From an uncultured Bacilli bacterium (lineage in GTDB: Bacteria; Bacillota_I; Bacilli_A; RF39; UBA660), in contig CAJUBJ010000001.1 of assembly GCA_910584655.1 (NCBI GenBank), positions 236,086-300,085 of the forward strand: 64,000 nt of DNA, read 5' to 3'. Positions 16,868 through 60,885 of the stretch are shown here, in pieces. The notes below the pieces were generated by a model. The model had not been told where the DNA came from and made no database searches. It saw only the letters and a list, made by a program, of their open reading frames with translations. Position 1 is the first letter of the stretch. Each line of letters starts with the position of its first letter. Made by a program: the position numbers and the translations under genes.

Positions 16868-16880
16868 GGAGATGCATTAT

Positions 16881-19325: not shown

Positions 19326-19335
19326 AATAAAAGAA

Positions 19336-19362: not shown

Positions 19363-19407
19363 GTGACTTATTATTAATTCTTTAATCTTGTTTAAAATGT
19401 ATATAAA

Positions 19408-19416
19408 TGATATAAT
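19408..19416 (+). promoter_or_regulatory. extended -10 element TGATATAAT upstream of the tad-like operon
   Basis: TGnTATAAT about 45 nt upstream of the first tad-like gene. Confidence 0.45.
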
Positions 19417-19462
19417 TTGTATATACTAGGGGACTTTAGAATGGTAAGGGAACGTGATACAA

Positions 19463-21567: not shown

Positions 21568-21578
21568 GGAGGTATATT

Positions 21579-22559
21579 ATGGAAAAGTATAAAGTTTTAT
21601 TACAATTATGTGTAATATTATCTATTTTATTTTTAATATACCTTTTTTATAAGTTTATATTATCTTTAATAAAGAAGAATAGATTAAGTTATTATTCAAT
21701 TAATTTAGAAAAAGAGGAATATGCTGAAGATTCATTTATCATAAGTATTATTTGTAGATTTGGTAAGTTTTTAAAATCCTTAGTTGTTTTTAATGGGCTA
21801 GGAAGAATTTATGATAGATATATAGATTCTGATAGTAGATTTAAAAACGGGATGGATTATGTTAGTTTAAAGATTTTATTGGGCTTTTTATTAGTAATTC
21901 TTTATCTTTTGATAAGTTTTTTATATAAAAATAGTATTATGACATTAATAATTGTAGTTACTTTTATTTTAGGTTTTGTTTTACCAGATTTTTATTGTTT
22001 TTATTTAAAGACTAAATTTAACAAATTGAATGATAAAGATATATTAAAAGCTATTATAATAATGAATAATAGTTATAAAGTTAATAGAAGTAATAAACAA
22101 GTTATTGAAGATGTTATTAGTAGATGTGATGGACAAATACAAAATGAATTTAAGAAAGTTTTGAATGATATTAATCTTGGTATGACCTTAGAAGAAGCTA
22201 TAAAAAGAATCTATATTCGAACTGGTAATAAGACTTTTTTAGATATAAGTATAATGATTTCTCTTAATAGTAAAATTGGTGCTGATAAAGTAGATATTAT
22301 TAATGATATAGAAAAAAGATTGGTAGATGAAGAAAAGTTTTATAATGAACTTTATGTGGCTAAAAGTATTAATAAAATTGCTGTTATAGTGTTTGGAATT
22401 TTACCTTTATTATTTATTACTTATTTGATATCTTTTAATAAAGATTATATAAATTTGTTAGTACAAGGCAGAGGAGTACTAATTATATTAATACTTGCTA
22501 TAATATATTTATTATATATTTTAATTATTTGTAGAATTGCTAGAGGTAGATATATATGA
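21579..22559 (+). CDS. tadB: TadB-like platform protein (T2SS F-domain membrane protein)
   Basis: Polytopic membrane protein with a central cytoplasmic helical domain. Position after tadA; the stop overlaps the next gene. Confidence 0.65.
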   Translation: MEKYKVLLQLCVILSILFLIYLFYKFILSLIKKNRLSYYSINLEKEEYAEDSFIISIICRFGKFLKSLVVFNGLGRIYDRYIDSDSRFKNGMDYVSLKILLGFLLVILYLLISFLYKNSIMTLIIVVTFILGFVLPDFYCFYLKTKFNKLNDKDILKAIIIMNNSYKVNRSNKQVIEDVISRCDGQIQNEFKKVLNDINLGMTLEEAIKRIYIRTGNKTFLDISIMISLNSKIGADKVDIINDIEKRLVDEEKFYNELYVAKSINKIAVIVFGILPLLFITYLISFNKDYINLLVQGRGVLIILILAIIYLLYILIICRIARGRYI

Positions 22560-23197
22560 TAGATAATAGAGTGAGAAAAAAACTTAGGTATTTGGGAATA
22601 AGATTAGATTCTAAGGTATTTAATATAATGAGATTAATAAGTTCTATAATATTATTTTTAATCTTACTATTTATGGTTGATTATGGATATATAGTTGCTC
22701 CTGTTAGTGTGGTTATATATTATATTTTAGTAGAATATATTATTTTAGACTTAGGGATTAAAAGAAGGAATATAGAGTTAGAAGATGATGCTTTAGATTT
22801 TATTCCAATATTTTTAATAGCGTTAAAAAATAAAAGGAATGTTAAAAGTGCTCTTATTGTAAGTATAGAGTTGGTTGATAATACTTTATCTAAGGAGTTT
22901 AAAAAAGCTCTTAGAAGTTCTCGTTTAGGTAAATCTTTGGATGAATCTTTAAGAGAAATTAAAGAAAATATTTCTAGTTCAGTTATAACTAATATTATAA
23001 TTAATATAATGGAAGCTAATAGACTTGGAAATAATATAAATGATAATGTTAATATACAGTTGGATTATATAAGAAGTAAAAAGAGAATAAAGTTATTAAG
23101 AAAATATAAGATAATACCTTTAAAATTGGCTATTTTGAGTATATGTTTTGTTTTCTTAGCAATAGTTATTTTAATTATGTTTAATTTTTATTCTTAG
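22556..23197 (+). CDS. tadC: TadC-like platform protein
   Basis: ATGA overlap with the tadB-like gene. TM - cytoplasmic helical domain - TM topology. Confidence 0.6.
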   Translation: MIDNRVRKKLRYLGIRLDSKVFNIMRLISSIILFLILLFMVDYGYIVAPVSVVIYYILVEYIILDLGIKRRNIELEDDALDFIPIFLIALKNKRNVKSALIVSIELVDNTLSKEFKKALRSSRLGKSLDESLREIKENISSSVITNIIINIMEANRLGNNINDNVNIQLDYIRSKKRIKLLRKYKIIPLKLAILSICFVFLAIVILIMFNFYS

Positions 23198-23203
23198 ACA
23201 ATT

Positions 23204-23229
23204 AAAGACTTTTTGTAAGTCTTTTTTTT
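23204..23229 (+). terminator. intrinsic terminator after the tad-like operon
   Basis: Stem AAAGACTT/AAGTCTTT followed by T6. Confidence 0.7.
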
Positions 23230-23272
23230 GATTAATAAACATGATATACTTATTATAATAGGAGATGAATGT

Positions 23273-23611
23273 ATGAAAGAGGATTTAAAAACAATTTTTT
23301 ATGTAGGTCTTGGTGCTTTAAGTGAAACGAATGATAAGTTTAAAACTATTAAAAGTGAGTTATATAATAGGGGAAAAGAACTTTATGAAAAGGGAATTGT
23401 TGCTAATGAAGAATTAAAACATAATATGAAAGAAGTAATGAAAGATAATGTTACTGTAGTTAATGTTAATGTAAATAGTTCAAAAGATGATTTAATAAAG
23501 AACTTTAATGATTTATCTTTAAAAGATAAGAAAGAAGTGCTTAAGGTATTAAATAAAAAGGGATGGACTGATGTAAATTATGAAAATGGAGAAAACGAGA
23601 AAGAATCTTAG
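23273..23611 (+). CDS. small helical protein, phasin-like (COG3937-type)
   Basis: FYVGLGALSETNDKFKTIKSELYNRGKELYEKG pattern. AGGAG RBS before the ATG at 23273. Overlaps the downstream ABC1 kinase gene. Confidence 0.4.
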   Translation: MKEDLKTIFYVGLGALSETNDKFKTIKSELYNRGKELYEKGIVANEELKHNMKEVMKDNVTVVNVNVNSSKDDLIKNFNDLSLKDKKEVLKVLNKKGWTDVNYENGENEKES

Positions 23612-25181
23612 TGGTAAAGAGCGTTTATTTGAGATATTAGAAGTTTTAAAAAAACATAATGTGATTAAAGGTGTTGATCCAGTAAAATTAAGAAAAATTT
23701 TGGAGGATTTGGGACCAACATATATTAAAGTTGGACAAATTTTATCTAATCGTCCTGATATGTTACCACAAGAGTATATTATTGAGTTAAGTAAATTACG
23801 TAGTAATGTAAATCCAATGGGATATCAAGAAATATTAAATATTCTTACAGAGGAATATGATAAAAAGTTATTTCAATTGTTTTTAAGTATAGATAGAAAT
23901 CCTCTTGGTAGTGCGTCGATTGCACAAGTACATAAAGCTGTCTTAAAAGATGGAAAAGATGTTGTAATAAAAGTTCAGAGAAAAAATATAAAAGAAATAA
24001 TGATTGCAGATATAAGAGTTTTAAAAAAGGCCTTGGGGATGCTTCATGTTCAAAGTTTGTTTAAGAATATAGTATCATTTGATGATGTCTTAGATGAACT
24101 TTTAACTACAACGTTAGAAGAAATGAATTTCTTGATAGAAGCTGAACATATTGAAGAGTTTTATCAAGAAAATAAGGATATTAAGTATATTAAAGTCCCT
24201 AAAGTTATAAAAAATTTAACTACTGAAAAAGTAATAGTTATGGAATATATTGATGGGCTTAGTATAAGTCAAACTGATGAATTAATTAATAGTGGCTACG
24301 ATCTGGATGAAATAGGGAGTAAGTTAGCAGATAATTATATTTATCAAGCAATTGATGTAGGATATTTTCATGCAGATCCTCATCCTAATAATATAATTAT
24401 TACAGATGGAAAAATTGGGTATATTGATTTTGGAATGATGGGAAGATTAAATTCCCGCAATAAGGATTTGTTGAAAAAATGTATTGTTGCGATATTTAAT
24501 AATGATATTAGAGAAGTTGAAAGAATACTGTTAATATTAGGCGATACAAAAAAGGAAATAAATCATTCTAAGTTATGTAATGAATTGCAACTTATATTGG
24601 ATAAAAATAAATCGACTGGAATAGCAGATATAAATATTACTAAGTTTGCTAATGAACTTTTGAATTTGCTTGGGAATAATGGAATTACATTACCTAAGGA
24701 TATTACAATGCTAGTTAGAGGTATTGTGGTACTTGAAGGAACTTTAGAAACAGTAAGTCCTAGTATTAATCTTTTACAAGTGTTTGAGAATAGAGTTAAG
24801 AATATTAGTTTAAAAGAACTATTAAGTAAAGATAATCTATTAAAAGAAACAGGACATATAATGTCTTCTATTGGTAGTCTTAATAGATTGCCATATGATT
24901 TACATACTTTTTTTAAAGGTGTTTCTAGAGGAGAGACAAAATTCAATGTAGAGATAACAGAGTCTAATAAAATATTGGATAGATTTGAAAAAATGATACA
25001 TCGAATAGTTGTATGTATCTTAGATGTTGCTTTTATATTAGGAGCAGCTTTAATGGTATCTAATGGTATTAATAGCAATGATAAAAGATTTTTATTTTAC
25101 TTATATGTTGCTGTAGGGTTTATATTTACAATATGGTTATTTATAAAAATGTATTTAGATAAATTGAATAGAAAAAAGTAA
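23580..25181 (+). CDS. ABC1/UbiB-family atypical protein kinase with C-terminal TM helices
   Basis: LGPTYIKVGQILSNRPDMLP, GSASIAQVHKA, FHADPHPNNI and IDFGMMG motifs. Confidence 0.85.
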   Translation: MKMEKTRKNLSGKERLFEILEVLKKHNVIKGVDPVKLRKILEDLGPTYIKVGQILSNRPDMLPQEYIIELSKLRSNVNPMGYQEILNILTEEYDKKLFQLFLSIDRNPLGSASIAQVHKAVLKDGKDVVIKVQRKNIKEIMIADIRVLKKALGMLHVQSLFKNIVSFDDVLDELLTTTLEEMNFLIEAEHIEEFYQENKDIKYIKVPKVIKNLTTEKVIVMEYIDGLSISQTDELINSGYDLDEIGSKLADNYIYQAIDVGYFHADPHPNNIIITDGKIGYIDFGMMGRLNSRNKDLLKKCIVAIFNNDIREVERILLILGDTKKEINHSKLCNELQLILDKNKSTGIADINITKFANELLNLLGNNGITLPKDITMLVRGIVVLEGTLETVSPSINLLQVFENRVKNISLKELLSKDNLLKETGHIMSSIGSLNRLPYDLHTFFKGVSRGETKFNVEITESNKILDRFEKMIHRIVVCILDVAFILGAALMVSNGINSNDKRFLFYLYVAVGFIFTIWLFIKMYLDKLNRKK

Positions 25182-49887: not shown

Positions 49888-52428
49888 ATGAAAAGAAATG
49901 AAGTAGATAGAAGCAAATTAAGTCCTGGAATGAAACAATATATGGAAATTAAAGATAACTATGAAGAAGAATTGTTATTTTTTAGATTGGGAGATTTTTA
50001 TGAATTGTTTTTTGAAGATGGGATATTGTGTAGTAGAGAATTGGAATTAACATTAACTAGTAAAAATGGTGGATTAGATGAGCGAATTCCGATGTGTGGT
50101 GTGCCATTTCATAGTGTTCAACCTTATATTGAAAAGTTGGTTAGTAAAGGATATAAAGTAGCGATATGTGAACAATTAGAAGATCCTAAAAGTGCAAAAG
50201 GAATGGTTAAAAGGGGAGTAGTTCAAGTAATAAGTAAAGGTACTGTTGTAGATTATGAAATGTTAAAAGATTACGATAATAATTATATTGGTAGTGTCTT
50301 AGATTTTAATAATCTATATACTATTACGTATAGTGATATTTCTACTGGTTCTTTGTATATTATGGAAATTCCTAAAACGCAAGAAAAATTAATCAATACA
50401 ATATTGTCTTTGAATTTAAAAGAAGTTATTTTATATGATAATAGTAATAATGATCTTATTAATCTTTTAAAATATACTTATGGAATAGAAGTTAGTATAA
50501 GTAATGAATATTTAGAAAATAAATATGAATATTTATATAAAGAAATTAAAGAAATGAGATATATACTTGGAATTAAGCATTTACTTTATTATTTGGTGGT
50601 TAAACAATTAAAAGAATTAGATCATATTAGTGGAGTGGAAATAGTTAGACCTGATGAATTTTTAGAAATGGATGTACATTCGGTAAGAAATTTAGAGTTG
50701 TTTGAGACTTTAAGATTAAAGGAAAGAACTTATAGCTTGATATGGTTACTTGATAAAACTAAAACTGCTATGGGAAGCAGATGTTTAAAGAATTGGCTTG
50801 CAAATCCTCTTAAAGAGAAAGATGCTATTTTGAAACGTTATGATATGATTGAGACTTTAAGAACAGAATTTATTGTTAAAGAAGAGCTATCACATGAATT
50901 GGAAGAAGTTTATGATTTAGAAAGACTTTGCGGTAAAGCGATATGTGGTAATTTGAATGCTAGAGATGTTCTACAAATTAAGAGAAGTTTAGGAGTATTA
51001 CCTAGTATAGATGCAAAGATTAAGCAGTTAGGTTTCGAATATGAATTTAGTGATGAATCTAAGCTTTTTGAATTACTTGAAAGAGGAATATATGAAACAC
51101 CACCTATTGGTTTAAAAGAGGGATATTTAATTAAAGATGGTTTTAATGCTGAGTTAGATGAATTAAAAAGTATTCGTAGTGGAGGAAAAGATTTTATTGC
51201 TAGTTTAGAGGAACAGGAAAGAGAAAGAACTGGTATTAAAACTTTGAAAGTTGGTTATACTAAAGTTTTTGGTTATTATATAGAAGTAAGTAAGGGACAG
51301 TGTGATCAGGTAAAGGATGAATATGGTTATGAAAGAAGACAAACTTTAACTAATTGCGAGAGGTTTATAAGCCCTTTGCTTAAAGAAAAAGAAGCTTTAG
51401 TATTAAATGCTGAAGAGAAGATAGTTGAGCTTGAATATAATTTATTTATGGAGATTAAAGAGGAGATAAAGAAAGAAATATTCAATTTAAAGGCTATTGC
51501 AAGAGATTTAGCGAGTGTTGATGCAATAATAAGTTTAGCTACTGTTGCTGATGAGTATAATTTGGTTCGACCTGAGATACTTGATGTTAGAAGGATAGAA
51601 ATTGTTGAAGGTAGACATCCTGTTGTAGAAAGAGTAAGCAAAAAGGAATATGTATCTAATGATTGTATGATGGATGAAGAGACAAATACTTTTTTAATTA
51701 CTGGACCTAATATGAGTGGTAAATCAACGTTTATGAGACAACTTGCTATTATAATATTAATGGCTCAGATGGGATCGTTTGTTCCGGCAAAAAGTGCTAA
51801 GCTACCGATATTTGATAAAATTTTTACCAGAATTGGAGCGTCTGATGATTTAGTTAGTGGCGAATCAACTTTTATGGTTGAGATGATGGAAGCTAAGAAT
51901 GCATTGGTTAACGCAACAGGAGATTCGTTGATATTGTTTGATGAATTGGGGCGTGGGACAGCTACATATGATGGAATGAGTCTTGCTCAAGCTATTTTGG
52001 AATATGTAAATGATAAGATAAAGTGTAAAACTTTATTTAGTACCCATTATCATGAATTGACGGCACTTGATAAACTTAGTGGTATAAAAAATGTTCATGT
52101 TGAAGCTTATGAAAAGGATGGAAATGTGACATTTTTACATAAAGTAAAAGAGGGTTCGGTTGATAAAAGTTATGGAATTCACGTTGCTAAGTTAGCAGGA
52201 ATGCCAAAGGAAATACTAGGAAGAGCTTCCGAAGTTTTAAAGTATTATGAAGGAAGCAGTAAAGAAGCTTTAGTTACGACGAGTGAACAAGTTACATTTA
52301 ATTTTGATGTTCAGGATAATGAGTCTTCTCCTGTTTTAGATAAATTAGAAGAAATAGATCCATTAAAGTGTACACCTATGGATGCTATTAATTTACTTTA
52401 TGAATTAAAGGAGTTATCTAAAAAATAA
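49888..52428 (+). CDS. mutS: DNA mismatch repair protein MutS
   Basis: SPGMKQYMEIK...FFRLGDFYELF mismatch-binding domain, Walker A GPNMSGKST, STFMVEM, DELGRGT. Confidence 0.97.
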   Translation: MKRNEVDRSKLSPGMKQYMEIKDNYEEELLFFRLGDFYELFFEDGILCSRELELTLTSKNGGLDERIPMCGVPFHSVQPYIEKLVSKGYKVAICEQLEDPKSAKGMVKRGVVQVISKGTVVDYEMLKDYDNNYIGSVLDFNNLYTITYSDISTGSLYIMEIPKTQEKLINTILSLNLKEVILYDNSNNDLINLLKYTYGIEVSISNEYLENKYEYLYKEIKEMRYILGIKHLLYYLVVKQLKELDHISGVEIVRPDEFLEMDVHSVRNLELFETLRLKERTYSLIWLLDKTKTAMGSRCLKNWLANPLKEKDAILKRYDMIETLRTEFIVKEELSHELEEVYDLERLCGKAICGNLNARDVLQIKRSLGVLPSIDAKIKQLGFEYEFSDESKLFELLERGIYETPPIGLKEGYLIKDGFNAELDELKSIRSGGKDFIASLEEQERERTGIKTLKVGYTKVFGYYIEVSKGQCDQVKDEYGYERRQTLTNCERFISPLLKEKEALVLNAEEKIVELEYNLFMEIKEEIKKEIFNLKAIARDLASVDAIISLATVADEYNLVRPEILDVRRIEIVEGRHPVVERVSKKEYVSNDCMMDEETNTFLITGPNMSGKSTFMRQLAIIILMAQMGSFVPAKSAKLPIFDKIFTRIGASDDLVSGESTFMVEMMEAKNALVNATGDSLILFDELGRGTATYDGMSLAQAILEYVNDKIKCKTLFSTHYHELTALDKLSGIKNVHVEAYEKDGNVTFLHKVKEGSVDKSYGIHVAKLAGMPKEILGRASEVLKYYEGSSKEALVTTSEQVTFNFDVQDNESSPVLDKLEEIDPLKCTPMDAINLLYELKELSKK

Positions 52429-52946
52429 TGTATAATAGTGAATATTTTTATGGAATAAGTGATTTGATGCACTTTAATGTATATGCTTCTTTATTGAAGG
52501 AACATATAATTAAGGAAGAAAGAGTTATTATTAAGGTTTTTAAGAAAGATAAGGAAATTGTTATTATTGAAACTAATAATTTTAATGATGTTATTTTGAA
52601 AGATACAAGAAAAGATAAGAATTGTGATTTGATGGAATTTGATTTAACCTTTTTGAAGGTTCTTGAAAGGTATTATAGTGATTATGAAATACCAGGAATG
52701 ATATATGAATATATGGAAGGTGTTGGTTCGTGGTATCGTGTGAAAATAGAAGGATATTCTCCTGAGGAAAAATTACTTAAGCCATTCTTTTTGAAGAAAA
52801 AAGTTGATAAAGATTCTTTGATTAAATATAGTAAAAATGATCAAGAATTACAAAGATTAAATGATTTTTATAGTATTACTAAAGGATTAATAAAGTTTAG
52901 TAAGAAAAAAGAAATTAAAGAACTATTTTTTAAAGTAGAAGAATAG
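52428..52946 (+). CDS. hypothetical protein (172 aa), start overlaps the mutS stop (TAATG)
   Basis: ORF coupled to mutS. A terminator hairpin overlaps its 3' end. No family recognised. Confidence 0.5.
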   Translation: MYNSEYFYGISDLMHFNVYASLLKEHIIKEERVIIKVFKKDKEIVIIETNNFNDVILKDTRKDKNCDLMEFDLTFLKVLERYYSDYEIPGMIYEYMEGVGSWYRVKIEGYSPEEKLLKPFFLKKKVDKDSLIKYSKNDQELQRLNDFYSITKGLIKFSKKKEIKELFFKVEE

Positions 52947-52956: not shown

Positions 52957-52965
52957 TGTTATAAT
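52957..52965 (+). promoter_or_regulatory. extended -10 element TGTTATAAT of the 1623-aa gene
   Basis: Exact 9-mer directly after the terminator T-run. RBS AGAGGGTGAG and the ATG follow at 52990. Confidence 0.55.
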
Positions 52966-52989
52966 TTAATTATTATAGAGGGTGAGTTT

Positions 52990-55900
52990 ATGCAGATATC
53001 TTTAATAGAAAAAAAGCTAATTGAAAGTATTAAGAAAGATTTAAACTCTGGTAAAAGTAATATCTTAAAAATAGGAATATTAAGTAGTGATGGGGTAGGA
53101 GAACTTATTCATGAAAAAAAGTTTCTTTTAGATTTAAGAAAGTTAAATAGTAAAACCGCATCAAAAGTAATTCATATGATTCAAAATAATGAAATATTGA
53201 GTTCTCAAGATGAATTTGAAAAATATAATGTTTGTTCATATGTTTTTGAAGGAAAAAATCTTAATTTTATAAGGAAACATTTGAAAGATGCACCTTTATT
53301 AACTACTTATTATTTGTTAAATAATATGCAACTTTTTGAAGAAGCAATTAAGACTTTTTCGGTTCAGGAACAGGAAATTATTTTTGATAGTTATTTTACT
53401 CTGGATAAAAATGGTTTGCTGTTGTCATATTATGATATTTATAAATATATGATTAATTTGACAGATGAAGCTAAAATAAAATATATGATGAATTCTGTAT
53501 GCTATATGAATTTTGAAGAATTAGATGTTCTTTTTGATAGTTTTAAGTCTCATCAAAAATTAATAGAAGCGATTGATATATTTTATGATAAAACATATAT
53601 TAATGAGTTTGTAAATGTATTTAAGTATTTATCAAGTGATGAGGTTGCTGAATTGATAAAACCTAAATTAGCTAAAAATTGTTATAATGCAGGAGAATTA
53701 ATAAAAAAATTAAGTTTTGAACAAAAGATTGATATTTTAAATTATTTAATTGTGAATGATACATATAATGTAAGTCTTTTTGCGAATATGATGGTTGATG
53801 AATATGTTAAGAATAATAATGACTTAAATATATATAATATTTTGAATAAGATTTTTGATCAAAATAAGATTTCAACTTCACTTCTTGATTTAGAGGCTGC
53901 TAAAACAAAAATTAATGATATGAGTGGAGAAGAATTGTTAAACTTGTATATTTCATCTTCTTTTGAGCCGATAAAGCAATATATAAAGTCTTCTAAAAAT
54001 TTGTGGCAGAAAGAACCTTTGTTATCTTATCTGATAGAAAATGATTTGTCTTTTATATGCAAGTATGTTTTTAGAGAAAGTTCTTTAACTGATATGGAAA
54101 AGGAATTGTTTTTAAATAAAGATATAGTTTATAAAATGGCTGATAATTTGTTTAAAAATAGTGAATTTGAAGCTATTGTTTATAGATATCAAAATCTTAT
54201 AGGTGAATATTTTAAAGATGAGGAATTTGCACATAAATTACTTAGAAATATACCTAGAGTTATTGAGATATTTTATACATTAGAAATGAATGTTAATTTA
54301 ATTAGATTTGCTTTTGATAATGGTTATATTCCTTTTACATATTTGTATGATAAGTTTAAAGATAATAAGGATGTTATTGATGCTTGGCTTAGTTGTATTA
54401 AAGATTTTGACGCAAAGAATGAATCTTTTTCAACATTATTTAATAATCTTGTTAATGTGCCCGATTTTCCTTTGATACAGGAGATATTATTACAAAAAGC
54501 AGCTGATAATTTAAATATGCCTTTTGATGTTTTTTTAAAACGATTTGAGGCTTTAAAAAAAGTTAATAGTGAGATTTTAAGTACTTTAGATTATCGTTTG
54601 TTTGATGAAAAATTTTCGTTTTTAAGTACAAATAAAATTGAAATTTTAGGTGCTAATAAAATTGTTTCATCTAAATTATGTTCTTTGTCAATTAATCAGT
54701 TAAAAGTTATAAAAGATATGATGTCTTTTTCTTCGTCAATAAACTGGATTGATTTATTAGATAGAATATTAAATAATATTTACGATTATATAGATTTAAT
54801 TGACGATTTAGCAGATAAAGTATTGGATATTAATGAGATATCTTTACTAACAAGAATGATGGTTCATAATAATTTCTTGAAGATTAAAACATATGAAGAT
54901 TTAAAAGCTTATGATGATAAACTTGATTATTTAATTAAACAATTAGAAAAAAGCGAAGATATTGAAAAGTATAAAGAATTAAATGCATTGTGTATTTTGG
55001 GAATAGATTATAAAGAGTTTTCAAGAATATATTCGATCTATTGCAGTGATTTAGAACAATTTTGTAAGCTTAGTAAAAATGAAGATTTAAAAAATATTTT
55101 AAAGTTTGTTAAAAATGTTTCTGAATGTAACTCTATAGATATATTAAAAGATATATATAATAATACACCTAAATTAAAAGTTAGTTCGGAATTAATTATT
55201 AATTTAGATGCTGAGATTAGAAGAGAATTTTTGAAATTATATAATGAAACTTTGTATAAGGTAAATACAGATGATAAATTAGGTTCTAAAAGTTTTAATA
55301 TACAAACGAATACTGAAGGTAAGGTTATGTATGTTCCGTCAAATGATGGAGAAATATCTGTTGAATTTTATAGTCCAATTGGTCTTGGTGATGAGCAGAA
55401 AGAGTTTTCACTTATAATGACTTCACTTGGGGCTTATTCAGAACATGAAGAACCAGATGATTATTATGCTAGTTGGAATGTTGATTTGATTCAGTCGCAT
55501 GGATTTTGTTGTAGCTACTTGAAAAATGATAATTTAGGTACAGCAAGAATTTGTCATGCATGCTTAGGTTTTAACGAATTTGATCCTGATTCTTTATTGT
55601 TATCTGCTCCCTATGATATTGGATCTGCAACTGCTAATACAAAATTTAATACTTCACGTGAAATGAATACTAGATTTTGTACACCAAGAGGAATGGTTAA
55701 TGCGACAAGGCATACACATAATGAAATGGTTTTTGAACGTAGAAATTTAACAAGTGGAGGTTCTTTTAAAAAAGAGCCAGCTTATGCGGTATTTTTTTGT
55801 AACGATTTTAATAAGTTAACAGATTCTGAAAAAAGTATATATGAATCTACTGTAAAGGCAGCAATTCAACTTGGAAAAAATGGTAAAGCATTGCCTGTTA

Positions 55901-57861
55901 TTGTAGTAGAAAGATTGAAAATAGCTAAATATCAATATGATTTAATGAATAAGAAAGTAGCGAAGTTGATAGAGGATTATGAACCAGGACAAGCTAAAGA
56001 ATTAATCGTATCTTTTGTTAATAATAGAATTGGTAATACATATGCTGATGAAATTAATGATAAGTATTTTAATTCTGATTTTCAAAAATATATTATAGAT
56101 GCAATGATTTCGAAAATTATTGATTTAAGAAAGCAAGGATTAATAGAAGAATCTTTATTGTTATATAATGAGATAGATAATGCTATTAAAGAAGAAAGAA
56201 AAAATGGTGATTCAGGAATTTCTTTAATATTTAGAAGTCAATTTGATAAATTAAAAAAGAAAATGCAAATTCTTAATTTAAATAAGGATAATGATAGCCA
56301 ATTATTAAGAAATTTGTTGGTGGCATTTTCACAAATAGAAGATGATAAATGTTTAAAACGTTTTAATGAAATTGGTTCAATTTATGAAGCAGAGTATTTT
56401 ATTGATAATGCGGAAATATTGGATATTTTATTAAATGAAGTTGATATGAAGACTTTATCTGCTAAACTTAAAGAGTTAGAAGAAGATAATATTTATGTAA
56501 ATAATTCTCCTCATAATAATAGATATATAGCTAATAAATTTTTGTATTCTTTAATGATTTTAGAAAAGAGATTAATGCATAATATTGATATTAATATGGT
56601 ACTGGATGTAATAAAATATCAAAGATGTTCTTATATGGATGGTGCTTCACAAAAGAATGTTTTGTCGTCTATTAATAAAGCAGAAAAAATGCTGAATCAA
56701 AAAGGATATGAACAGAGTACAATTGATAAAATTAAATTATTAATATTCTTACAAGATAAAAAGGATATTAATGAAGAAATGGTTAATGAAATTATCCAAA
56801 GAAATCAATTGAATACTATATACAATTTTAATTTAATTGAATTACAGGAAATTATAAATATTATTCATGATGTAGAATGTTTAGCTCATGCTAGATTTGT
56901 TACAGCCGATGAAGTTGACAAAAAGTATTTTTTTGATGAGAGAAATTTTAATTTTACTAAGCTTTCTTATCAACTAGAGGAGAGCTTTGCAATGATGGAT
57001 ATTAAGGATTATGCTAAAAATAATTTCATTAATGAAAGTAGTTATTTGGGAAAAGCAAATAATCCGCAGGAAGTTATAAGGTCAATAAGAAAAGGGAAAA
57101 CTGTGGATGGTGAATATAAAAATAATACTTATGAAAATGCATTCTTGGAGATTGATGTGGCTGAAAAAACAAATCCTTTGAATTTAATTTCTAAAAAAAT
57201 GAAGAATTATGGAGAGTTACCTCAACAATTATCTCTTATTGATTTTTATTCTCAAATTTTGAAAATGCCTAATTATTCTTATTTAAATAAGAAAATTGAA
57301 ATAAGGGAAGATTTATATTTAAATTGTTCTGAAATACATGGTGCAACACATGCAAATAATGTTTCATTATTTGCGACATATATTGCTAATTCTATTGGAC
57401 TTAGTGATAATGATGTGAAAACAATTATTGAAGCTTCTATTTATCATGATATTGGTCGTACAAGCGATTCGGTAAGTAATAATCATGGAGAGGTAGGAGC
57501 TGTAAAATATGGTGCATATGTTGAATGTCCGAATACTATTAATTCAAATGAAGTTAAATTTTTGATCGAAGCACACGCGTTACCTAGTTTGAAATATATT
57601 AGTGGTTTATTTAATAAATATAATTTTGATGATAATGATAAGGAAAGACTTTATAGAATGGCAACTGTTATTCGTGATGCTGATGCTTTAGATAGGACTC
57701 GTTTTTGTTTGTTTAGTGAAGAAAATAATTTAAAAGCAGAATTTTTAGTTAATGATGTTAGTAAAAAAATTATTGAATCTTGTCAAAGATTGAATTATAT
57801 TATTTATCAAGATTATATAAATGAAAAGATGTTGTCAGGCTCTGTAGCATTTGGTAAGTGA
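52990..57861 (+). CDS. very large (1623 aa) multidomain protein: helical-repeat N-terminal two-fifths, unrecognised Cys/His-rich core, helical linker, C-terminal HD phosphohydrolase domain
   Basis: Uninterrupted 4.9-kb ORF with a strong RBS. HD domain motifs: IHGATHANNV...ASIYHDIGR...NNHGEVGA...IRDADALDRTRF (nt about 57331-57710). The core SHGFCCSY...ARICHACLGF...RHTHNEMVFERRN (nt about 55315-55930) matches no family I know. Confidence 0.8.
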   Translation: MQISLIEKKLIESIKKDLNSGKSNILKIGILSSDGVGELIHEKKFLLDLRKLNSKTASKVIHMIQNNEILSSQDEFEKYNVCSYVFEGKNLNFIRKHLKDAPLLTTYYLLNNMQLFEEAIKTFSVQEQEIIFDSYFTLDKNGLLLSYYDIYKYMINLTDEAKIKYMMNSVCYMNFEELDVLFDSFKSHQKLIEAIDIFYDKTYINEFVNVFKYLSSDEVAELIKPKLAKNCYNAGELIKKLSFEQKIDILNYLIVNDTYNVSLFANMMVDEYVKNNNDLNIYNILNKIFDQNKISTSLLDLEAAKTKINDMSGEELLNLYISSSFEPIKQYIKSSKNLWQKEPLLSYLIENDLSFICKYVFRESSLTDMEKELFLNKDIVYKMADNLFKNSEFEAIVYRYQNLIGEYFKDEEFAHKLLRNIPRVIEIFYTLEMNVNLIRFAFDNGYIPFTYLYDKFKDNKDVIDAWLSCIKDFDAKNESFSTLFNNLVNVPDFPLIQEILLQKAADNLNMPFDVFLKRFEALKKVNSEILSTLDYRLFDEKFSFLSTNKIEILGANKIVSSKLCSLSINQLKVIKDMMSFSSSINWIDLLDRILNNIYDYIDLIDDLADKVLDINEISLLTRMMVHNNFLKIKTYEDLKAYDDKLDYLIKQLEKSEDIEKYKELNALCILGIDYKEFSRIYSIYCSDLEQFCKLSKNEDLKNILKFVKNVSECNSIDILKDIYNNTPKLKVSSELIINLDAEIRREFLKLYNETLYKVNTDDKLGSKSFNIQTNTEGKVMYVPSNDGEISVEFYSPIGLGDEQKEFSLIMTSLGAYSEHEEPDDYYASWNVDLIQSHGFCCSYLKNDNLGTARICHACLGFNEFDPDSLLLSAPYDIGSATANTKFNTSREMNTRFCTPRGMVNATRHTHNEMVFERRNLTSGGSFKKEPAYAVFFCNDFNKLTDSEKSIYESTVKAAIQLGKNGKALPVIVVERLKIAKYQYDLMNKKVAKLIEDYEPGQAKELIVSFVNNRIGNTYADEINDKYFNSDFQKYIIDAMISKIIDLRKQGLIEESLLLYNEIDNAIKEERKNGDSGISLIFRSQFDKLKKKMQILNLNKDNDSQLLRNLLVAFSQIEDDKCLKRFNEIGSIYEAEYFIDNAEILDILLNEVDMKTLSAKLKELEEDNIYVNNSPHNNRYIANKFLYSLMILEKRLMHNIDINMVLDVIKYQRCSYMDGASQKNVLSSINKAEKMLNQKGYEQSTIDKIKLLIFLQDKKDINEEMVNEIIQRNQLNTIYNFNLIELQEIINIIHDVECLAHARFVTADEVDKKYFFDERNFNFTKLSYQLEESFAMMDIKDYAKNNFINESSYLGKANNPQEVIRSIRKGKTVDGEYKNNTYENAFLEIDVAEKTNPLNLISKKMKNYGELPQQLSLIDFYSQILKMPNYSYLNKKIEIREDLYLNCSEIHGATHANNVSLFATYIANSIGLSDNDVKTIIEASIYHDIGRTSDSVSNNHGEVGAVKYGAYVECPNTINSNEVKFLIEAHALPSLKYISGLFNKYNFDDNDKERLYRMATVIRDADALDRTRFCLFSEENNLKAEFLVNDVSKKIIESCQRLNYIIYQDYINEKMLSGSVAFGK

Positions 57862-57871
57862 GGTTTTAAAA

Positions 57872-58039
57872 ATGGAAGAAAAGAAAAAAGAAGAGATTGA
57901 TTTATCTAAACTAACTTCTAAAGAAGAATTGTCAAAAATTGCTGAAATATGTAAAAAACTTAATTATATTTTTAATAATAACGAATCTGTTAAAGAAAGT
58001 TTAGAAGAACCAGTTTTAACGAAAAAAGGTAAAATGTAG
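57872..58039 (+). CDS. 55-aa charged helical mini-protein downstream of the 1623-aa gene
   Basis: GTGAGG RBS within the upstream stop region, ATG 10 nt after the TGA. MEEKKKEEIDLSKLTSKEELSKIAEICKKLNYIF... A terminator follows. Confidence 0.45.
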   Translation: MEEKKKEEIDLSKLTSKEELSKIAEICKKLNYIFNNNESVKESLEEPVLTKKGKM

Positions 58040-58048
58040 TTATAAGTA

Positions 58049-58078
58049 AAAACTATTCAATAAAAGAATAGTTTTTTT
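58049..58078 (+). terminator. intrinsic terminator
   Basis: Perfect 10-bp stem AAAACTATTC/GAATAGTTTT with a 7-nt loop and a T-run. Confidence 0.75.
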
Positions 58079-58079
58079 G

Positions 58080-58088
58080 TGTTATAAT
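58080..58088 (+). promoter_or_regulatory. extended -10 element TGTTATAAT
   Basis: Exact 9-mer immediately after the terminator, 32 nt before the ATG at 58121. Confidence 0.5.
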
Positions 58089-58120
58089 ATTAAAGATAGA
58101 ATTTGAGGAGTATATGTTAT

Positions 58121-59128
58121 ATGCGTAATATTTTAAATAAAGAAAAGTTAAGAAAATTTATTTATAATGCGTTATTTTATGGTGTTTTTGTAAGCATTTT
58201 TATTTTGTTTGTTGGAACTTTGATGGTTATATGGAGTAAATTTGAATATTCTGTAGAAAATAAATATGTTTCTAGTCAAATATTGGAGATGTTTGATAAT
58301 TTATTTTATTTAAATATTATAATATGTGTAATTGGTTTTTTAGCTAATATGTTTATATTTAATGGTGAAATCAAAAAGATTATAAAAAAAGATAAATATA
58401 GTAAAATAGCTACTTTAGAGTTTATTATTTTTGGGATGGCAATATTGTTACTTGTTGTTTCGCCAATTTTATATAAAATGTCTAATTTGTCTCTTAGTAA
58501 TTATAAAATGAAGACAATTTATTGTATGTCTTATTGCTCAACTTTTATGAGTGCATTTGTTTTATTTTATTTATTTAGCTTTTTTTGTTTGATAGCGGAA
58601 GATGATAGTTATAGTAAAGCAAAGCCTTATATTTATAGAATAGATAACTTGAGTTATGATGATATTTGTAAATTGATTGTTAAACAAATTGGTAAGATAG
58701 ACTTAAAGGGAGAGTTTTTTAATTCGGATTATAAAGTTAATTATTATATATTACACAAGAATGAAGAATTTGTTTATTGTATTATTAATTTAAAAAATAT
58801 AAGTGATGAATTCTTGAAATTATATTGTGAAAATCAATTGATTGATTTTGTAGAATATTTATATAAAAATAAATTAAATAAAAAAAGATATACTAAGATA
58901 ATGTATTTTATTTGTGTGGATACGTATGATGATAATTTTAAGAATTTAATTGAGTCATCTGCATATCAAGATGAGCATTTTTGTATTTTACATACTTTGA
59001 TTAATCTAAAGGGAAAGGATTTGTATATTGGAGGAATTAGGGATGGTGAAAAGCAAAATATTAAAAAATATATTTTAGTAAAAGAAGAAATAGAAAGAAT
59101 CTTAGTTGATGTATTGAAAAAGAATTAA
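58121..59128 (+). CDS. hypothetical membrane protein: about 4 TM N-terminal half plus about 170-aa cytoplasmic C-domain
   Basis: GAGGAG RBS. Four hydrophobic helices are followed by a soluble domain. No family recognised. Confidence 0.6.
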   Translation: MRNILNKEKLRKFIYNALFYGVFVSIFILFVGTLMVIWSKFEYSVENKYVSSQILEMFDNLFYLNIIICVIGFLANMFIFNGEIKKIIKKDKYSKIATLEFIIFGMAILLLVVSPILYKMSNLSLSNYKMKTIYCMSYCSTFMSAFVLFYLFSFFCLIAEDDSYSKAKPYIYRIDNLSYDDICKLIVKQIGKIDLKGEFFNSDYKVNYYILHKNEEFVYCIINLKNISDEFLKLYCENQLIDFVEYLYKNKLNKKRYTKIMYFICVDTYDDNFKNLIESSAYQDEHFCILHTLINLKGKDLYIGGIRDGEKQNIKKYILVKEEIERILVDVLKKN

Positions 59129-59195
59129 TAATTTATTGTTTAAAGTTAGAAAATGTATTAATATAATAACAAAACATTTTAAAGGAGATGTAATT

Positions 59196-59429
59196 ATGCT
59201 TAAGGGTACAGGAAAGCCAGGAGATTTACCTTATGGTTACGGAATTGGGAGAGTTCAACAAGTTAGTAGAACACAAATGGATGTAAAAAAAGATAGAGAA
59301 AAGCAAAATGAAGAAAAAAGGGCTAATTTACTTAGACAAAAATCTTTTATAGAAGAATTACGTCATCAGATGGAAATTCAAAGGCAAAATCAAGAGAATG
59401 AAGAAAAAGGTTTTAATAGAAAAATGTAG
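59196..59429 (+). CDS. 77-aa highly charged coiled-coil-like protein
   Basis: AAAGGAG sits 8 nt before the ATG at 59196. MLKGTGKPGDLPYGYGIGRVQQ... is followed by a K/E/Q/R-rich helix. Confidence 0.45.
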   Translation: MLKGTGKPGDLPYGYGIGRVQQVSRTQMDVKKDREKQNEEKRANLLRQKSFIEELRHQMEIQRQNQENEEKGFNRKM

Positions 59430-59458
59430 CTTTTTATCTTTTTAGTATGGGGTGTGTA

Positions 59459-60832
59459 ATGGAGATTTGGAAAGTTATTGTTAATAAATTTAAAAGTTTA
59501 TTTTTAATTTCTAGAAATAGAAGTGATTTTGATTTTAAACTAGTTTCTAATGTCGAAACGATAAGAGAGAATAATAAAAGTTTTTTAGATATTGATTATG
59601 GCACAATTATATGGGCTAAGAGATACAATAATGAAGTTGAAAAAGAAAAAATACCAGAAGGACATCGATGTGGACCTTTTATAGTTGTTGGAAGGGACAA
59701 AGAAAATTTGTTATGTTTTTATGCAACTGGTAGAGTTCCTGAAGAAGTTTTCTTTAAACAGGATACTATTCTTTTGGATGCATCAATGTATGGTGACTTT
59801 CTTGACAAAAATACTTACATTCGCACTAATAAAATTATTTCAATTTCTGAAAATCAATTAGTTGAAGTAATTGATAGTCTTACTTTGATTGATAGAAAAA
59901 AATTGAATAAAAAGATAAGTGTTGGATTACGTAAATGTTTATATTTTGAGACTGGTTTAGAAAATACTGATGTTCATTTTGAAACTACTGATATAATAAA
60001 TTTAAAGGGACGCTTTTATTTAATTGTTAATTGTAAAGAGAAAAAGTTTGATTGTTTACCTTTAAGCACTCAGAACGGAAATTACGTTTTTTCTGTTGAT
60101 GGTGTGGATTATTATTACGATATAGACAATTTTATTACTTTTGACAATTTAGATTCTGCTTATCTAGTTAATTTTGTTACTGATTTAAAGACGATGAATA
60201 TTATTAAAGTTAGAAGAAAAAATTATCTTGAAAATTTGGATAAATATAAAAATGTTAAAATAGGATGTATAATAAAAAATATAGAAGATGAAAAAACATA
60301 TTATGTATATGGTGAAGAAGGAGATAAATGGCTTATTGTAAAAGTAGATTCTTTATGTAATGAGCAGATGGCATCTTTTAAAATTGAAGAAAATGAGTTT
60401 TACTCTGACTTTAGAAGTAATTGTATGATTTCTAAGAAAGATACAAATTATGTAGTTTTGTTTGTTGCTAATGCAAAAGAAACTGAAGAATTTAGAAAAA
60501 TAAAAAAAGCTTATTTGAAAAGCCATACGACTAGAGAAGGAAAAAAACAAAGAAAATATAAATTTGATTCTGGTGTTATAGTTAAAACAAAATTTTTTGA
60601 TGAAAAAGAATATGTTATAATTATAGGTAATCAAGATGATGTTGTGGTAGTTTTAAAAGATCAAATAAATGAGGATTTTTGTTTAGAAGTTTTGCCAGTT
60701 AATTCAATTTATAAAAGTGGTAAAATGAATGATATGCAATTTAGAGATTTACTTATGAAAATCAAAGAGGGTTACAAAGGTTTAATTAGTCGCGAAAGAA
60801 TGAATCTGTTAAAAAAGAAATATGATTTGTAG
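59459..60832 (+). CDS. hypothetical protein (about 457 aa) built from several small beta-barrel-like (SH3/PemK-like) modules
   Basis: The first module GTIIWAKRYNNEVEKEKIPEGHRCGPFIVVGRD resembles the PemK/MazF N-terminal strand pattern. Later modules: IGCIIKNIEDEKTYYVYGEEGDKWLIVKVD and SGVIVKTKFFDEKEYVIIIGNQDDVVVVLKD. Confidence 0.55.
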   Translation: MEIWKVIVNKFKSLFLISRNRSDFDFKLVSNVETIRENNKSFLDIDYGTIIWAKRYNNEVEKEKIPEGHRCGPFIVVGRDKENLLCFYATGRVPEEVFFKQDTILLDASMYGDFLDKNTYIRTNKIISISENQLVEVIDSLTLIDRKKLNKKISVGLRKCLYFETGLENTDVHFETTDIINLKGRFYLIVNCKEKKFDCLPLSTQNGNYVFSVDGVDYYYDIDNFITFDNLDSAYLVNFVTDLKTMNIIKVRRKNYLENLDKYKNVKIGCIIKNIEDEKTYYVYGEEGDKWLIVKVDSLCNEQMASFKIEENEFYSDFRSNCMISKKDTNYVVLFVANAKETEEFRKIKKAYLKSHTTREGKKQRKYKFDSGVIVKTKFFDEKEYVIIIGNQDDVVVVLKDQINEDFCLEVLPVNSIYKSGKMNDMQFRDLLMKIKEGYKGLISRERMNLLKKKYDL

Positions 60833-60876: not shown

Positions 60877-60885
60877 TGTTATAAT
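60877..60885 (+). promoter_or_regulatory. extended -10 element TGTTATAAT upstream of nusB
   Basis: Exact 9-mer 19 nt before the ATG at 60905, with AAGAGGTG RBS between. Confidence 0.45.

Follow-up and report, generated by a model that had tools for sequence, protein, structure and literature searches.

A giant HD-domain protein and its small partner form an autonomous two-gene cassette in uncultured gut Bacilli

Introduction

What does a bacterium with little DNA to spare do with a protein of 1623 residues, most of which resembles nothing described? The question is raised by positions 52957–58078 of a 64,000-nucleotide stretch of DNA from an uncultured Bacilli bacterium (the whole stretch is referred to here as the window). 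The original prediction, made from the letters of the sequence, saw in this locus a stand-alone unit encoding a helical repeat scaffold joined to a Cys/His-rich segment and a C-terminal HD phosphohydrolase domain, accompanied by a coupled 55-residue reading frame, and suspected a part in defence, toxicity or signalling. Here, the unit is compared with its orthologues, with a wider protein family, and with sequence, profile and structure libraries. Literature searches on HD-CE and on RF39/RFN20 found no mention of this family.

Results and Discussion

Two genes, one transcription unit

The segment 52957–58078 is an autonomous two-gene cassette, comprising a promoter, the gene of the 1623-residue protein (BIG), a translationally coupled gene of 55 codons, and a terminator. 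All features described below lie on the forward strand. The promoter is an extended −10 element, TGTTATAAT (52957–52965), positioned 24 nt 5′ of the start codon. This motif is over-represented in the window (12 copies against 4.0 expected, with none of 100 shuffles attaining 12), with copies directly 5′ of several window genes, and TGnTATAAT can be read closely 5′ of the big-gene start in five of six orthologous loci and in the cassettes of a sister subfamily. A Shine–Dalgarno-like GAGGGTGA (52979–52986), read directly from the sequence, precedes the ATG at 52990. The open reading frame itself (52990–57861, with the TGA stop at 57859–57861) is real, as eight full-length orthologues (P0001–P0008) of 37–99% identity attest.

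The unit is closed by an intrinsic-terminator-like hairpin (58048–58076, 11-bp stem, 7-nt loop) and T-run that together span 58048–58078. The hairpin has a folding energy of −9.7 kcal/mol (z = −3.5) and is retained with compensatory changes in two orthologous loci, L001 and L002. The next TGTTATAAT promoter, at 58080–58088, belongs to the gene downstream of the unit. Its own promoter and 3′ hairpin support the proposal that the unit is transcribed independently of mutS. The bracket predicted on the upstream side is only half there: the promoter stands, but the supposed upstream terminator does not (z = 0.07, a 4-bp stem over the stop codon of the preceding gene).

The charged 55-residue partner (57872–58039) begins 10 nt past the BIG stop codon, which is overlapped by the GAGG Shine–Dalgarno of the small gene (57860–57863). 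Conservation in orthologues confirms a genuine and coupled gene. It is conserved at 61% in L001 and L002, is found by HMM in L006–L008 (E 7.5e-8 to 2.8e-16), and is present in all same-species contigs listed, while a stop codon embedded in a Shine–Dalgarno sequence (TAAGGAG, TAGGAGG, TAGGCGG) recurs in six of six orthologous loci. Across the family, 47 of 63 big genes have a small same-strand reading frame at their stop codon, versus 23 of 288 controls (8%), a difference whose p value of 3e-27 overstates independence because the 47/63 loci are phylogenetically related. Small partners occur with big proteins that have the C-terminal HD domain and with those that lack it. The partner has no recognisable DNA-binding domain, and small partners from different subfamilies could not be shown to be homologous (HMM iteration stalls at the 6 orthologues; hhalign probability 17%).

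An alpha/beta core defines the family

The domain that defines the family is an alpha/beta core, residues 755–1000 (55252–55989), for which conservation was measured over 134 members and a confident AF2 model was obtained (pLDDT 84.3, pTM 0.86). It is followed by a helical extension of the core module, residues 1001–1090 (55990–56259), with conserved N1011 and N1012. The abrupt switch in composition noticed originally is borne out, the core differing from the N-terminal part in Gly (6.3 vs 1.7%), Pro (3.9 vs 1.3%), Cys (2.9 vs 1.3%) and His (2.4 vs 0.8%).

Near-invariant residues among the 134 members are F806, G814, A815, Y816, W829, C840, S842, N846, G860, F861, D876, S879, T906, N911, E912, R917, K927, P930, Y932 and P969. 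The polar and charged residues of this set, namely D, E, R, K, T, N and S with a single Cys, persist at an overall core identity of only 23–40%. D876, E912, R917, K927, T906, N911, S879, C840 and S842 look like a candidate catalytic or ligand-binding site, and it is from this conservation that the core may be regarded as an enzyme. The motifs singled out in the original prediction lie where it had placed them (SHGFCCSY at residue 836, ARICHACLGF at 852, TPRGM...ERRN at 898, AYAVFFCNDF at 931, and DADALDRTR of the HD domain at 1563). The catalytic Cys/His cluster read into them is not a family trait: C841, C855, H856, C858, H908 and C937 all fall below the 70% listing threshold family-wide, and only C840 (97%), H837 (79%) and H910 (70%) reach it. 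Most of the highlighted cluster is lineage-specific.

The core was found not to be assignable to any described family, in agreement with the earlier reading, by Pfam, NCBIfam, PADLOC, PHROGs, PDB sequences or Foldseek. Searches of PDB sequences with core profiles built from 3 and from 23 sequences gave nothing significant, and Pfam gave no recurrent match over 23 core segments. Foldseek returned no match for the core-only model against the PDB, or for a model of residues 500–1100 against the PDB and BFVD, with nothing below E 0.18 over the two models.

Several known active sites were compared with the conserved residues. A PARP-like H-Y-E ADP-ribosyltransferase arrangement (SHG...NEMVFE) would depend on H837, which is only 79% conserved and not invariant, and no PARP or toxin structure is among the Foldseek matches (best E 0.98, TM at most 0.15), a comparison in which very distant folds of this class can be missed. 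For a PD-(D/E)xK nuclease (D876, E912, K927), the sole related Foldseek match is the VRR-NUC domain 4qbl at noise level (E 3.3, probability 0.03, 57 columns), and an ExK motif cannot be seen in the sequence; neither this class nor the EEP nucleases, suggested by a resemblance of 'SWNVD' to APE1, gave a fold match. A class-I glutamine amidotransferase triad (C840, H910, E912) was rejected because position 910 is His in only 70% of members, being Tyr in many of those sampled, and because there is no fold match. A Pol-beta nucleotidyltransferase was rejected for want of a G[GS]...DxD motif.

The HD domain

Residues 1440–1623 (57307–57861) form an HD phosphohydrolase domain, matched by PF01966 over residues 1452–1569 (E 3.5e-7) with 27.8 bits for whole BIG and 31 bits for the C-terminal fragment, against a gathering cut-off of 22. 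As predicted, the signature is complete. It comprises H1450, H1454, H1486-D1487, H1499, H1529, D1563, D1565 and D1568, and the metal ligands are 93–100% conserved in 56 members, with 96–100% for H1454, H1486-D1487, H1499, H1529 and D1563/D1568. The extended H..HD..H..H..D ligand form is typical of two-metal HD enzymes.

By profile, the nearest solved relatives are the HD-GYP cyclic-dinucleotide phosphodiesterases 4mcw (E 3.4e-5, the best) and 5z7c, together with 3dto, 3b57 and 5dqv, which we take to be YpgQ-like NTP pyrophosphohydrolases; the nearest solved relatives of the domain act on nucleotides. The similarity to 4mcw spans only the H..HD segment, and neither GYP nor HHE, parts of the HHExxDGxGYP motif that follows the HD dyad in HD-GYP proteins, occurs in residues 1440–1623. 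A Cas3-type HD nuclease is also poorly matched (PADLOC Cas3 models at only E 0.02–0.05 over about 40 residues; no helicase, no Walker A).

BIG thus shares with the HD superfamily a C-terminal stretch of 180 residues carrying the H..HD..H..H..D set and a DADxLD motif. It departs from it in lacking GYP, in the weakness of the profile similarity (E 3e-5 at best), and in having the domain as a tail to 1440 of 1623 residues that match nothing. The tail is itself optional in the family: it is found in somewhere between a quarter and a half of members, BIG included, and is missing from many.

The remainder of the protein

Residues 1–500 (52990–54489) constitute an N-terminal region that evolves fast, is specific to the orthogroup and matches no family. 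At 20–50% identity to orthologues, against 60–77% for the core, this is the fastest-diverging part of BIG, the core and the HD domain being conserved, and other subfamilies have unrelated sequence in its place. It is followed by an all-helical domain at residues 505–754 approximately (54502–55251), recognised as an HMM segment ('helical') in many family members. Between the core module and the HD domain lies a linker or 'mid' region, residues 1091–1435 (56260–57294), which has no family match, is shared by orthologues and by a number of other subfamilies, and gave only sub-threshold noise in Pfam (Efg1, E 0.053).

The helical repeat scaffold that had been proposed for the N-terminal part holds with respect to helicity, residues 500–755 being modelled by AF2 as helices throughout, for the most part at a pLDDT above 85, but not with respect to repeats, none of which was detected internally by self-BLAST. 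The predicted lack of an NTPase motif is correct, with no Walker A anywhere in BIG. There is no transmembrane segment or signal peptide either, and BIG is therefore probably cytoplasmic; a hydrophobic segment of either type is present in 1 of 152 family members.

Searches of whole BIG against Pfam, NCBIfam, PADLOC and PHROGs matched the HD domain only, four BIG segments searched against Pfam at E ≤ 10 gave no other significant match, and residues 1–1440 contain no Pfam domain, including LXG, RHS or other trafficking domains. Whole BIG against PDB sequences gave nothing significant. The architecture is accordingly without a described counterpart in Pfam, NCBIfam, PADLOC, PHROGs or the PDB, as had been suspected.

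Distribution and genomic context

The BIG family is large and undescribed, and its core is without a sequence or structural relative in the libraries searched. It comprises at least 518 representatives at E ≤ 1e-3 and 439 at E ≤ 1e-10, counted as protein clusters at 50% identity, and its big proteins are 1200–2200 residues long. A scan of GTDB genomes with the single BIG protein gave no match, and a narrower alignment (A9) used as the query located 62 family loci. The titles of all but one mention MAG or uncultured, and the label is in most cases Bacilli, Bacillota, Mollicutes or Tenericutes. Within the collections searched, the family is confined to uncultured, low-GC, host-gut Bacilli. A genome may contain up to three paralogous cassettes, which are divergent. 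PADLOC-DB v2 gave no match for BIG, its partner or its neighbours. In other subfamilies, proteins of 408, 314, 131 and 162 residues encoded nearby have no Pfam assignment.

In the window's own lineage the unit is fixed between mutS with its neighbour up172 on one side and nusB on the other, in four loci and down to 80% MutS identity. The variable presence that might be expected of a defence gene was not seen within the species, BIG and its partner being intact in 24 of 24 same-species contigs read (10 distinct places listed). The 4.9-kb BIG reading frame is intact in all of the listed places, and the neighbouring frames dn341 and dn461 carry frameshifts in 5 of the 10. BIG itself changes rapidly at this constant site, with 55% identity to its counterpart in L001, where MutS is 91% and NusB 93% identical. 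The genes at 58103–60832 (58121–60832 in the original prediction, which proposed a test of their co-occurrence) are not linked to the unit: L007 and L008 lack this block at the corresponding position.

The sister subfamily behaves differently. Proteins 70–92% identical have only 0–3 flanking reading frames in common, and DNA homology (blastn) ends at the edges of the 5.2-kb promoter–gene–partner cassette; L019:6856-12058 and L018:4437-9634, for example, are 91.9% identical over 5,211 nt. In further subfamilies homology is likewise limited to the cassette. In L019 and L022 the cassette is part of a mobilisable element, flanked by a Mob_Pre relaxase on one side and a large serine recombinase on the other, and its neighbours include Fic/DOC, a C5 methylase and a pPIWI-associated nuclease.

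Possible function

Our preferred reading, to which we give a probability of roughly 45%, is that the unit is an autonomous conflict-type (defence or addiction) module consisting of an enzyme and a regulator. The core would be an enzyme whose substrate, a nucleotide or a nucleic acid, bears phosphate, and the HD domain would hydrolyse a phosphoester of the core's substrate or product. The fast-evolving N-terminal region may give specificity or sensing, and the small partner may bind BIG as a neutraliser or regulator. In its own lineage, the module would have become fixed at the mutS–nusB site. Genetic conflict, whether anti-phage or anti-MGE defence or addiction, is the most likely role because sister cassettes are found at unrelated sites and on a mobilisable element; the early suspicion of defence or toxicity gains support from this context and from the cassette-limited homology in the sister subfamily.

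Toxin–antitoxin, abortive-infection and large single-protein defence systems are among the closest parallels. Like them, the unit is a self-promoted bicistronic cassette of a large putative effector and a small, rapidly diverging partner, and the compact bicistronic operon with a small partner is a hallmark that it shares with type II toxin–antitoxin pairs. The likeness extends to several paralogues per genome, to unrelated contexts, and to an integrative mobilisable element on which Fic/DOC, a DNA methylase and a pPIWI-associated nuclease are neighbours. In contrast to all these systems, there is no PADLOC match, the partner gene follows that of the large protein and encodes no DNA-binding domain that can be recognised, the putative effector is of 1200–2200 residues with no recognised fold, and the unit is fixed and syntenic in its own lineage. 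Further results count against a conflict role: among 31 diverse members no PADLOC model was matched, apart from marginal Cas3-HD matches in two, and no plasmid, phage or viral-contig copies of the family were found.

It is tempting to speculate further that the core represents a novel enzyme fold, the mark of a new mobile two-gene conflict class specific to reduced-genome gut Bacilli, in which the giant senses an invader through its hypervariable N-terminus, the core, with the HD domain if present, makes or destroys a nucleotide or nucleic-acid target, and the partner restrains the giant. This extended version is put forward tentatively, and we consider it possible but rather doubtful. If true, a sizeable family of giant proteins (at least 518 clusters) from common, uncultured gut bacteria, with active-site-like conservation in its core, would bring a new catalytic fold, and probably also a new mobile two-gene type, to the known machinery of bacterial conflict or nucleotide signalling. 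The cassette is only 5.1 kb long, has its own promoter and offers clear targets for point mutation (D876, E912, R917 and K927 of the core, H1486/D1487 of the HD domain), which makes it directly testable.

The own-lineage synteny and universal presence in the assemblies read fit a core gene better than a typically patchy defence gene. BIG might accordingly be read as a lineage-specific housekeeping protein, by analogy a bifunctional nucleotide- or RNA-metabolising enzyme needed by reduced-genome Bacilli, with a transferase or cleaving core, a hydrolysing HD domain, and the 55-residue protein as a small subunit or chaperone. The constant position between mutS-up172 and nusB, intactness in 10 of 10 distinct same-species places while neighbours decay, a promoter of the type that precedes other window genes, conserved putative catalytic residues in both domains, and the nucleotide phosphohydrolases closest to the HD domain are all in keeping with such a role. 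The bifunctional enzymes RelA/SpoT, GlnD and class II CCA-adding enzyme unite a transferase domain and an HD hydrolase, and BIG would share their domain logic of an alpha/beta catalytic domain, helical spacers and an HD domain in one cytoplasmic polypeptide. The analogy is limited: BIG has no Pol-beta-type nucleotidyltransferase or RelA/SpoT synthetase signature, its core has no Pfam or Foldseek match, it is three to four times larger, and it comes with an obligatory small partner gene and mobile-cassette behaviour. A housekeeping protein would also not be expected to evolve far faster than its neighbours, as the L001 comparison with MutS and NusB indicates for BIG, to have several divergent paralogues per genome, to dispense with its HD domain in many members, to have sister cassettes whose contexts are unrelated and which can lie on a mobilisable element, or to be restricted, in the collections searched, to gut Bacilli-type MAGs. 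We regard this alternative as unlikely.

Polymorphic toxin–immunity pairs of Bacillota, LXG/T7SS toxins for example, also combine a large multi-domain protein with a small gene next to it in recombining cassettes. On this model BIG could leave the cell by a route not yet recognised to poison competitors or cells of the host, with the small reading frame conferring immunity, which would suit a small downstream gene that is family-wide and diverged beyond recognition between subfamilies, multiple paralogues per genome, and cassettes recombining into differing contexts. In contrast to those toxins, BIG lacks domains for secretion or trafficking (LXG, RHS and others of the kind in Pfam), and signal peptides or transmembrane segments are all but missing from the family (1/152). 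Its conserved part is central and its variable part N-terminal, the reverse of the pattern in polymorphic toxins, and the partner is present regardless of the C-terminal HD domain. Export as a toxin is therefore improbable.

That BIG is a non-enzymatic structural or scaffold protein, with the core as a binding domain and the HD domain degenerate or regulatory, would accord with its length, its mostly helical character in the model and a core without recognisable catalytic fold, but is made very improbable by near-invariant charged and polar residues at a core identity as low as 23% and by the conservation of all HD metal ligands. Least probable of all is a mismatch-repair accessory in which BIG, or up172 and BIG, supplies nicking in place of MutL: mutL usually follows mutS in Bacillota, BIG comes directly after mutS-up172 in four loci and no MutL-sized GHKL gene was noticed among the window reading frames scanned, but BIG has no GHKL ATPase or MutL endonuclease motif (its sole Pfam/NCBIfam match being an HD domain of nucleotide-phosphohydrolase type), it has its own promoter, and none of the other family loci compared adjoins a homologue of the window mutS.

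A minor point concerns the genetic code. RFN20 Bacilli are known to use an alternative code in which AGG is reassigned to Met and CGG to Trp (PMC8629427). In the BIG gene AGG codons stand where Arg is conserved (R907, R1569) and CGG does not occur, which bears out the standard translation.

Architecture of the cassette

With a GC content of ~26%, a strong positive GC skew and nearly all genes on the + strand, the window carries genes for SMC, Obg, trigger factor, Lon, MutS and NusB as well as an L21 leader, and this housekeeping content places it on the chromosome of a member of the Bacillota. The leader (RF00559, 41.4 bits; 10375-10446) lies 5' of the L21/L27/Obg region; L21 ribosomal-protein leaders are typical of Bacillota, in agreement with the housekeeping genes.

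The large gene (52990-57861, + strand) encodes a protein of 1623 aa. Its TGA stop codon is overlapped by a GAGG preceding the small partner ORF (57872-58039, + strand; 55 aa), which starts 10 nt past that stop. The promoter originally proposed for the unit, TGTTATAAT at 52957 (+ strand), proved to be a copy of an enriched motif, with 12 occurrences in the window against 4.0 expected (11453, 15556, 38725, 49862, 52957, 58080, 60877 and five more). The motif usually lies 20-45 nt 5' of a start codon and precedes several genes, among them mutS, the large gene and the gene after the cassette; this extended -10 sequence appears to be the standard promoter of the organism. The copy at 60877-60885 ends just 2 nt ahead of the listed GTG of nusB, and the true nusB start is therefore probably further downstream. 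Of the two terminators predicted to bracket the unit, the downstream hairpin and T-run (58048-58076, + strand) is significant (z = -3.5) and the upstream one is not (z = 0.07). Promoter, gene, partner and terminator form an autonomous cassette.

The motifs quoted from the large protein in the original prediction are all present where it had placed them, and the change in composition at the start of the core (aa ~755-1000) is confirmed. No Walker A motif is found anywhere in it; an NTPase motif had been reported absent from the first ~770 aa. The supposed N-terminal repeat scaffold did not hold up, self-BLAST returning zero internal repeats.

A large family with a distinctive core

An exhaustive HMMER search with aa ~500-1435 of the large protein retrieved, as representatives of 50% clusters, 518 proteins at E<=1e-3, of which 439 also passed E<=1e-10; their lengths run from 112 to about 2200 aa. 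Source databases name them solely "HD domain-containing protein" or "hypothetical protein", with one JGI "glycosyltransferase" label. A hydrophobic segment is present in just 1 of 152 members, and this large and previously undescribed family is therefore probably cytoplasmic. Its common module comprises a helical domain (aa ~520-765) and the core with a helical extension (aa ~800-1080), and N-termini are unrelated between subfamilies. Multiple off-register blastn matches (64-79% identity) in the N-terminal part of one family gene (L030, 7667-9052) show tandem repeats there, so a repeat array exists in some relatives, unlike the window protein. Three loci (L003, 6657-11160; L004, 6720-12441; L005) carry the core on a short gene of 256-355 aa directly after a 1063-1092-aa ORF, followed by a 57-aa and then a 408-aa gene; this may be a split or frameshifted giant gene, or a genuine multi-gene variant. 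The 408-aa neighbor recurs in five loci and has no Pfam match; its G-S...DFDF stretch resembles a nucleotidyltransferase motif.

Across 134 members, 84-100% conservation is seen for core residues F806, G814, A815, Y816, W829, C840, S842, N846, G860, F861, D876, S879, T906, N911, E912, R917, K927, P930, Y932 and P969, and for N1011/N1012. The Cys/His cluster highlighted earlier is thus retained at C840 and partly at H837 (79%) and H910 (70%), but its remaining Cys and His residues fall below the 70% listing threshold. AlphaFold2 models built from a 46-sequence alignment were of good quality both for aa 500-1100 (pLDDT 87, pTM 0.86) and for the core alone (pLDDT 84, pTM 0.86). An all-helical region precedes the core, which is an alpha/beta domain comprising a three-strand meander, then seven more strands interleaved with four helices. 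With Foldseek, the longer model had no match better than E 0.18 in PDB or BFVD, and the core alone none better than E 0.98 (TM <= 0.15) in PDB. Neither profile searches of PDB sequences with the core nor Pfam scans of 23 core segments yielded more than scattered noise, bearing out the earlier failure to assign this segment to a family. Judged by its conservation pattern, the core, which has no recognized fold, harbors a putative active site.

Pfam identifies HD alone in the large protein (aa 1452-1569; 27.8-31 bits, cut-off 22), and NCBIfam gives only a sub-threshold HDIG match. The predicted complete HD signature is borne out, its ligands being 93-100% conserved in 56 HD-bearing members. The nearest solved relatives of the HD profile are the HD-GYP protein 4mcw (E 3.4e-5), 3dto and 3b57, which we take to be YpgQ-like, and 5z7c, a cGAMP phosphodiesterase. 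All of these are nucleotide-directed enzymes, and the HD domain is intact and predicted to be of the nucleotide type. HD occurs in at least 18 of the 152 top matches, in 10 of 31 large members (Pfam) and in about half of the GTDB loci. In L066 (11178-11897) and L063 it occupies a separate 239-aa ORF overlapping the end of the family gene, a case of gene fission or frameshift.

Searches of PADLOC, PHROGs and PDB sequences with the large protein gave no significant match. On the basis of negative searches in Pfam (2025), NCBIfam (2026), PADLOC (2023), PHROGs, PDB and BFVD, the core, the architecture, the small partner and the cassette behavior are rated new; the HD domain is ordinary.

A pattern scan using one genome per GTDB species yielded 62 loci, all but one titled MAG or uncultured isolate. 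The commonest labels are uncultured Bacilli, Bacillota, Mollicutes, "Tenericutes", Ca. Faecimonas and Ca. Coprovivens, and isolate names indicate gut samples of rabbit, human (Hadza, Nepal), goat and sheep origin. A single genome can hold as many as three paralogous loci; no copy turned up among IMG/VR contigs, plasmids and phage genomes. Labels of "Roseburia sp." (L011, L051, L055; CAVDCT01) and "Muribaculaceae" (L013, L023, L062) are implausible for Bacilli-type loci and probably reflect mislabeled or contaminated bins.

The small partner

Of 63 loci whose 3' end is complete, 47 have a same-strand ORF of 45-140 aa starting within -80 to +60 nt of the stop codon of the family gene, compared with 23 of 288 other genes of >=300 aa in the same loci (Fisher p = 3e-27, an optimistic value since the loci are not independent). 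Partners are charged and, by eye, helix-prone. Between subfamilies their sequences diverge past HMM recognition; profile-profile comparison aligned the same N-terminal "DL..S.EE....IA" register with just 17% probability. In the window's own orthogroup the proposed coupling is upheld, the small ORF being kept in all six loci with the large-gene stop codon inside its Shine-Dalgarno sequence.

Maintenance and mobility

When 5.8 billion proteins were searched by word index, just three relatives of the large protein emerged (99, 61 and 55% identity), all ~1625 aa. The 55% relative (L001) has the same gene order: mutS, a 172-aa gene, the large gene, a 53-aa gene, ..., nusB. MutS and NusB of this locus are 91% and 93% identical to those of the window, the large protein just 55%. 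Identity to orthologues is 20-50% in the N-terminus (aa 1-500), 42-68% in the helical domain, 60-77% in the core and 55-77% in the HD domain. A TGnTATAAT box lies shortly 5' of the large gene in 5/6 orthologous loci, and the terminator hairpin is maintained with compensatory changes in the three closest.

Two loci from more distant species (L007, L008), with MutS 80% identical to that of the window, retain the gene order of the window, with genes for 336, 201 and 331 aa, then mutS, the 172-aa gene, the large gene, the small gene and nusB. Missing from both is the block of three genes (341, 97 and 461 aa) at 58103-60832, which is found in the window and L001 only. The block is accordingly an unrelated variable insertion, and the suggested co-occurrence of the genes at 58121-60832 with the large gene is not observed.

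Looking up the exact 172-aa neighbor gave 24 contigs of the species from 10 distinct places, all with intact 1623-aa and 55-aa genes; variable presence among close relatives is therefore not seen at this level. In five of the 10 places, frameshifts interrupt the neighboring 341- and 461-aa genes. The 90% cluster of the large protein holds 23 variants on >100 contigs, and 11 full-length variants differ at just 28 sites. The cassette is fixed and strongly maintained in this lineage. The adjoining 58103-60832 block could represent an accessory or toxin-like insertion undergoing decay; its 461-aa product weakly matches the PHROG of a MazF-like growth inhibitor (phrog_1936; aa 48-162, E 2.8e-4).

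In a sister subfamily (L009-L023), ~1640-aa proteins have the helical domain, core and HD, with a 48-104-aa partner in 14 of 15 loci. Proteins 70-92% identical there have 0-3 flanking ORFs in common, whereas in the window's orthogroup 6-7 of 10 flanks are shared at a protein identity of just 41-55%. Homology between sister loci (blastn) ends at the cassette edges, ~20 nt upstream of a TGATATAAT box on the left and at the end of the partner ORF on the right (L019:6856-12058 and L018:4437-9634, 91.9% over 5,211 nt; L019 and L011, 83% over 5,229 nt). The same edge-limited homology is seen in other subfamilies (L024/L026/L027; L039/L046/L049). L019 and L022 have in common a 10.9-kb element in which the cassette is accompanied by a Mob_Pre relaxase, two HTH regulators and a large serine recombinase; immediately upstream of this segment are Fic/DOC and a pPIWI-associated nuclease, and downstream is a C5 DNA methylase. 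A resolvase adjoins the cassette in L011. In these sister subfamilies the cassette moves as a unit.

Possible function

The best system-level reading, held tentatively at a probability of about 0.45, is a conflict-type module with a putative role in defense or addiction; PADLOC recognizes none of 31 diverse family members. The core may be an enzyme for a phosphate-bearing substrate; metal and phosphate handling would be consistent with its near-invariant D, E, R, K, T, N and S residues. The HD domain would work on the substrate or product of the core, the N-terminus would confer specificity, and the partner could regulate or neutralize the large protein. The main rival, a housekeeping enzyme specific to this lineage with the partner as its small subunit, is favored by fixation and synteny in the window's lineage; the fast evolution of the large protein, paralogy, the optional nature of the HD domain and mobility elsewhere in the family count against it. 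A polymorphic toxin/immunity pair, a MutL replacement and a pure scaffold are less likely.

Other features of the window

The 172-aa ORF (52428-52946), whose ATG overlaps the mutS stop (ATGA), is 67-82% conserved across all four syntenic loci; Pfam, NCBIfam, PADLOC and PHROGs offer no family assignment for it. Its product might be a partner of MutS specific to this lineage, and the window contains no visible mutL. The region 16833-25181 encodes an 830-aa protein with Listeria/Bacteroides-type repeats, one further gene, then a TadA/VirB11-type secretion ATPase, with a UbiB-like kinase further downstream, and may be a pilus or secretion locus.

CGG or AGG reassignment has been reported in related RFN20 Bacilli (PMC8629427). 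In 21 long window ORFs (~11,500 codons), CGG is used 0 times, CGC 6, CGA 12 and AGG 38, and AGG codons coincide with conserved Arg positions. This codon use suggests that CGG is unassigned or avoided and has not been reassigned.
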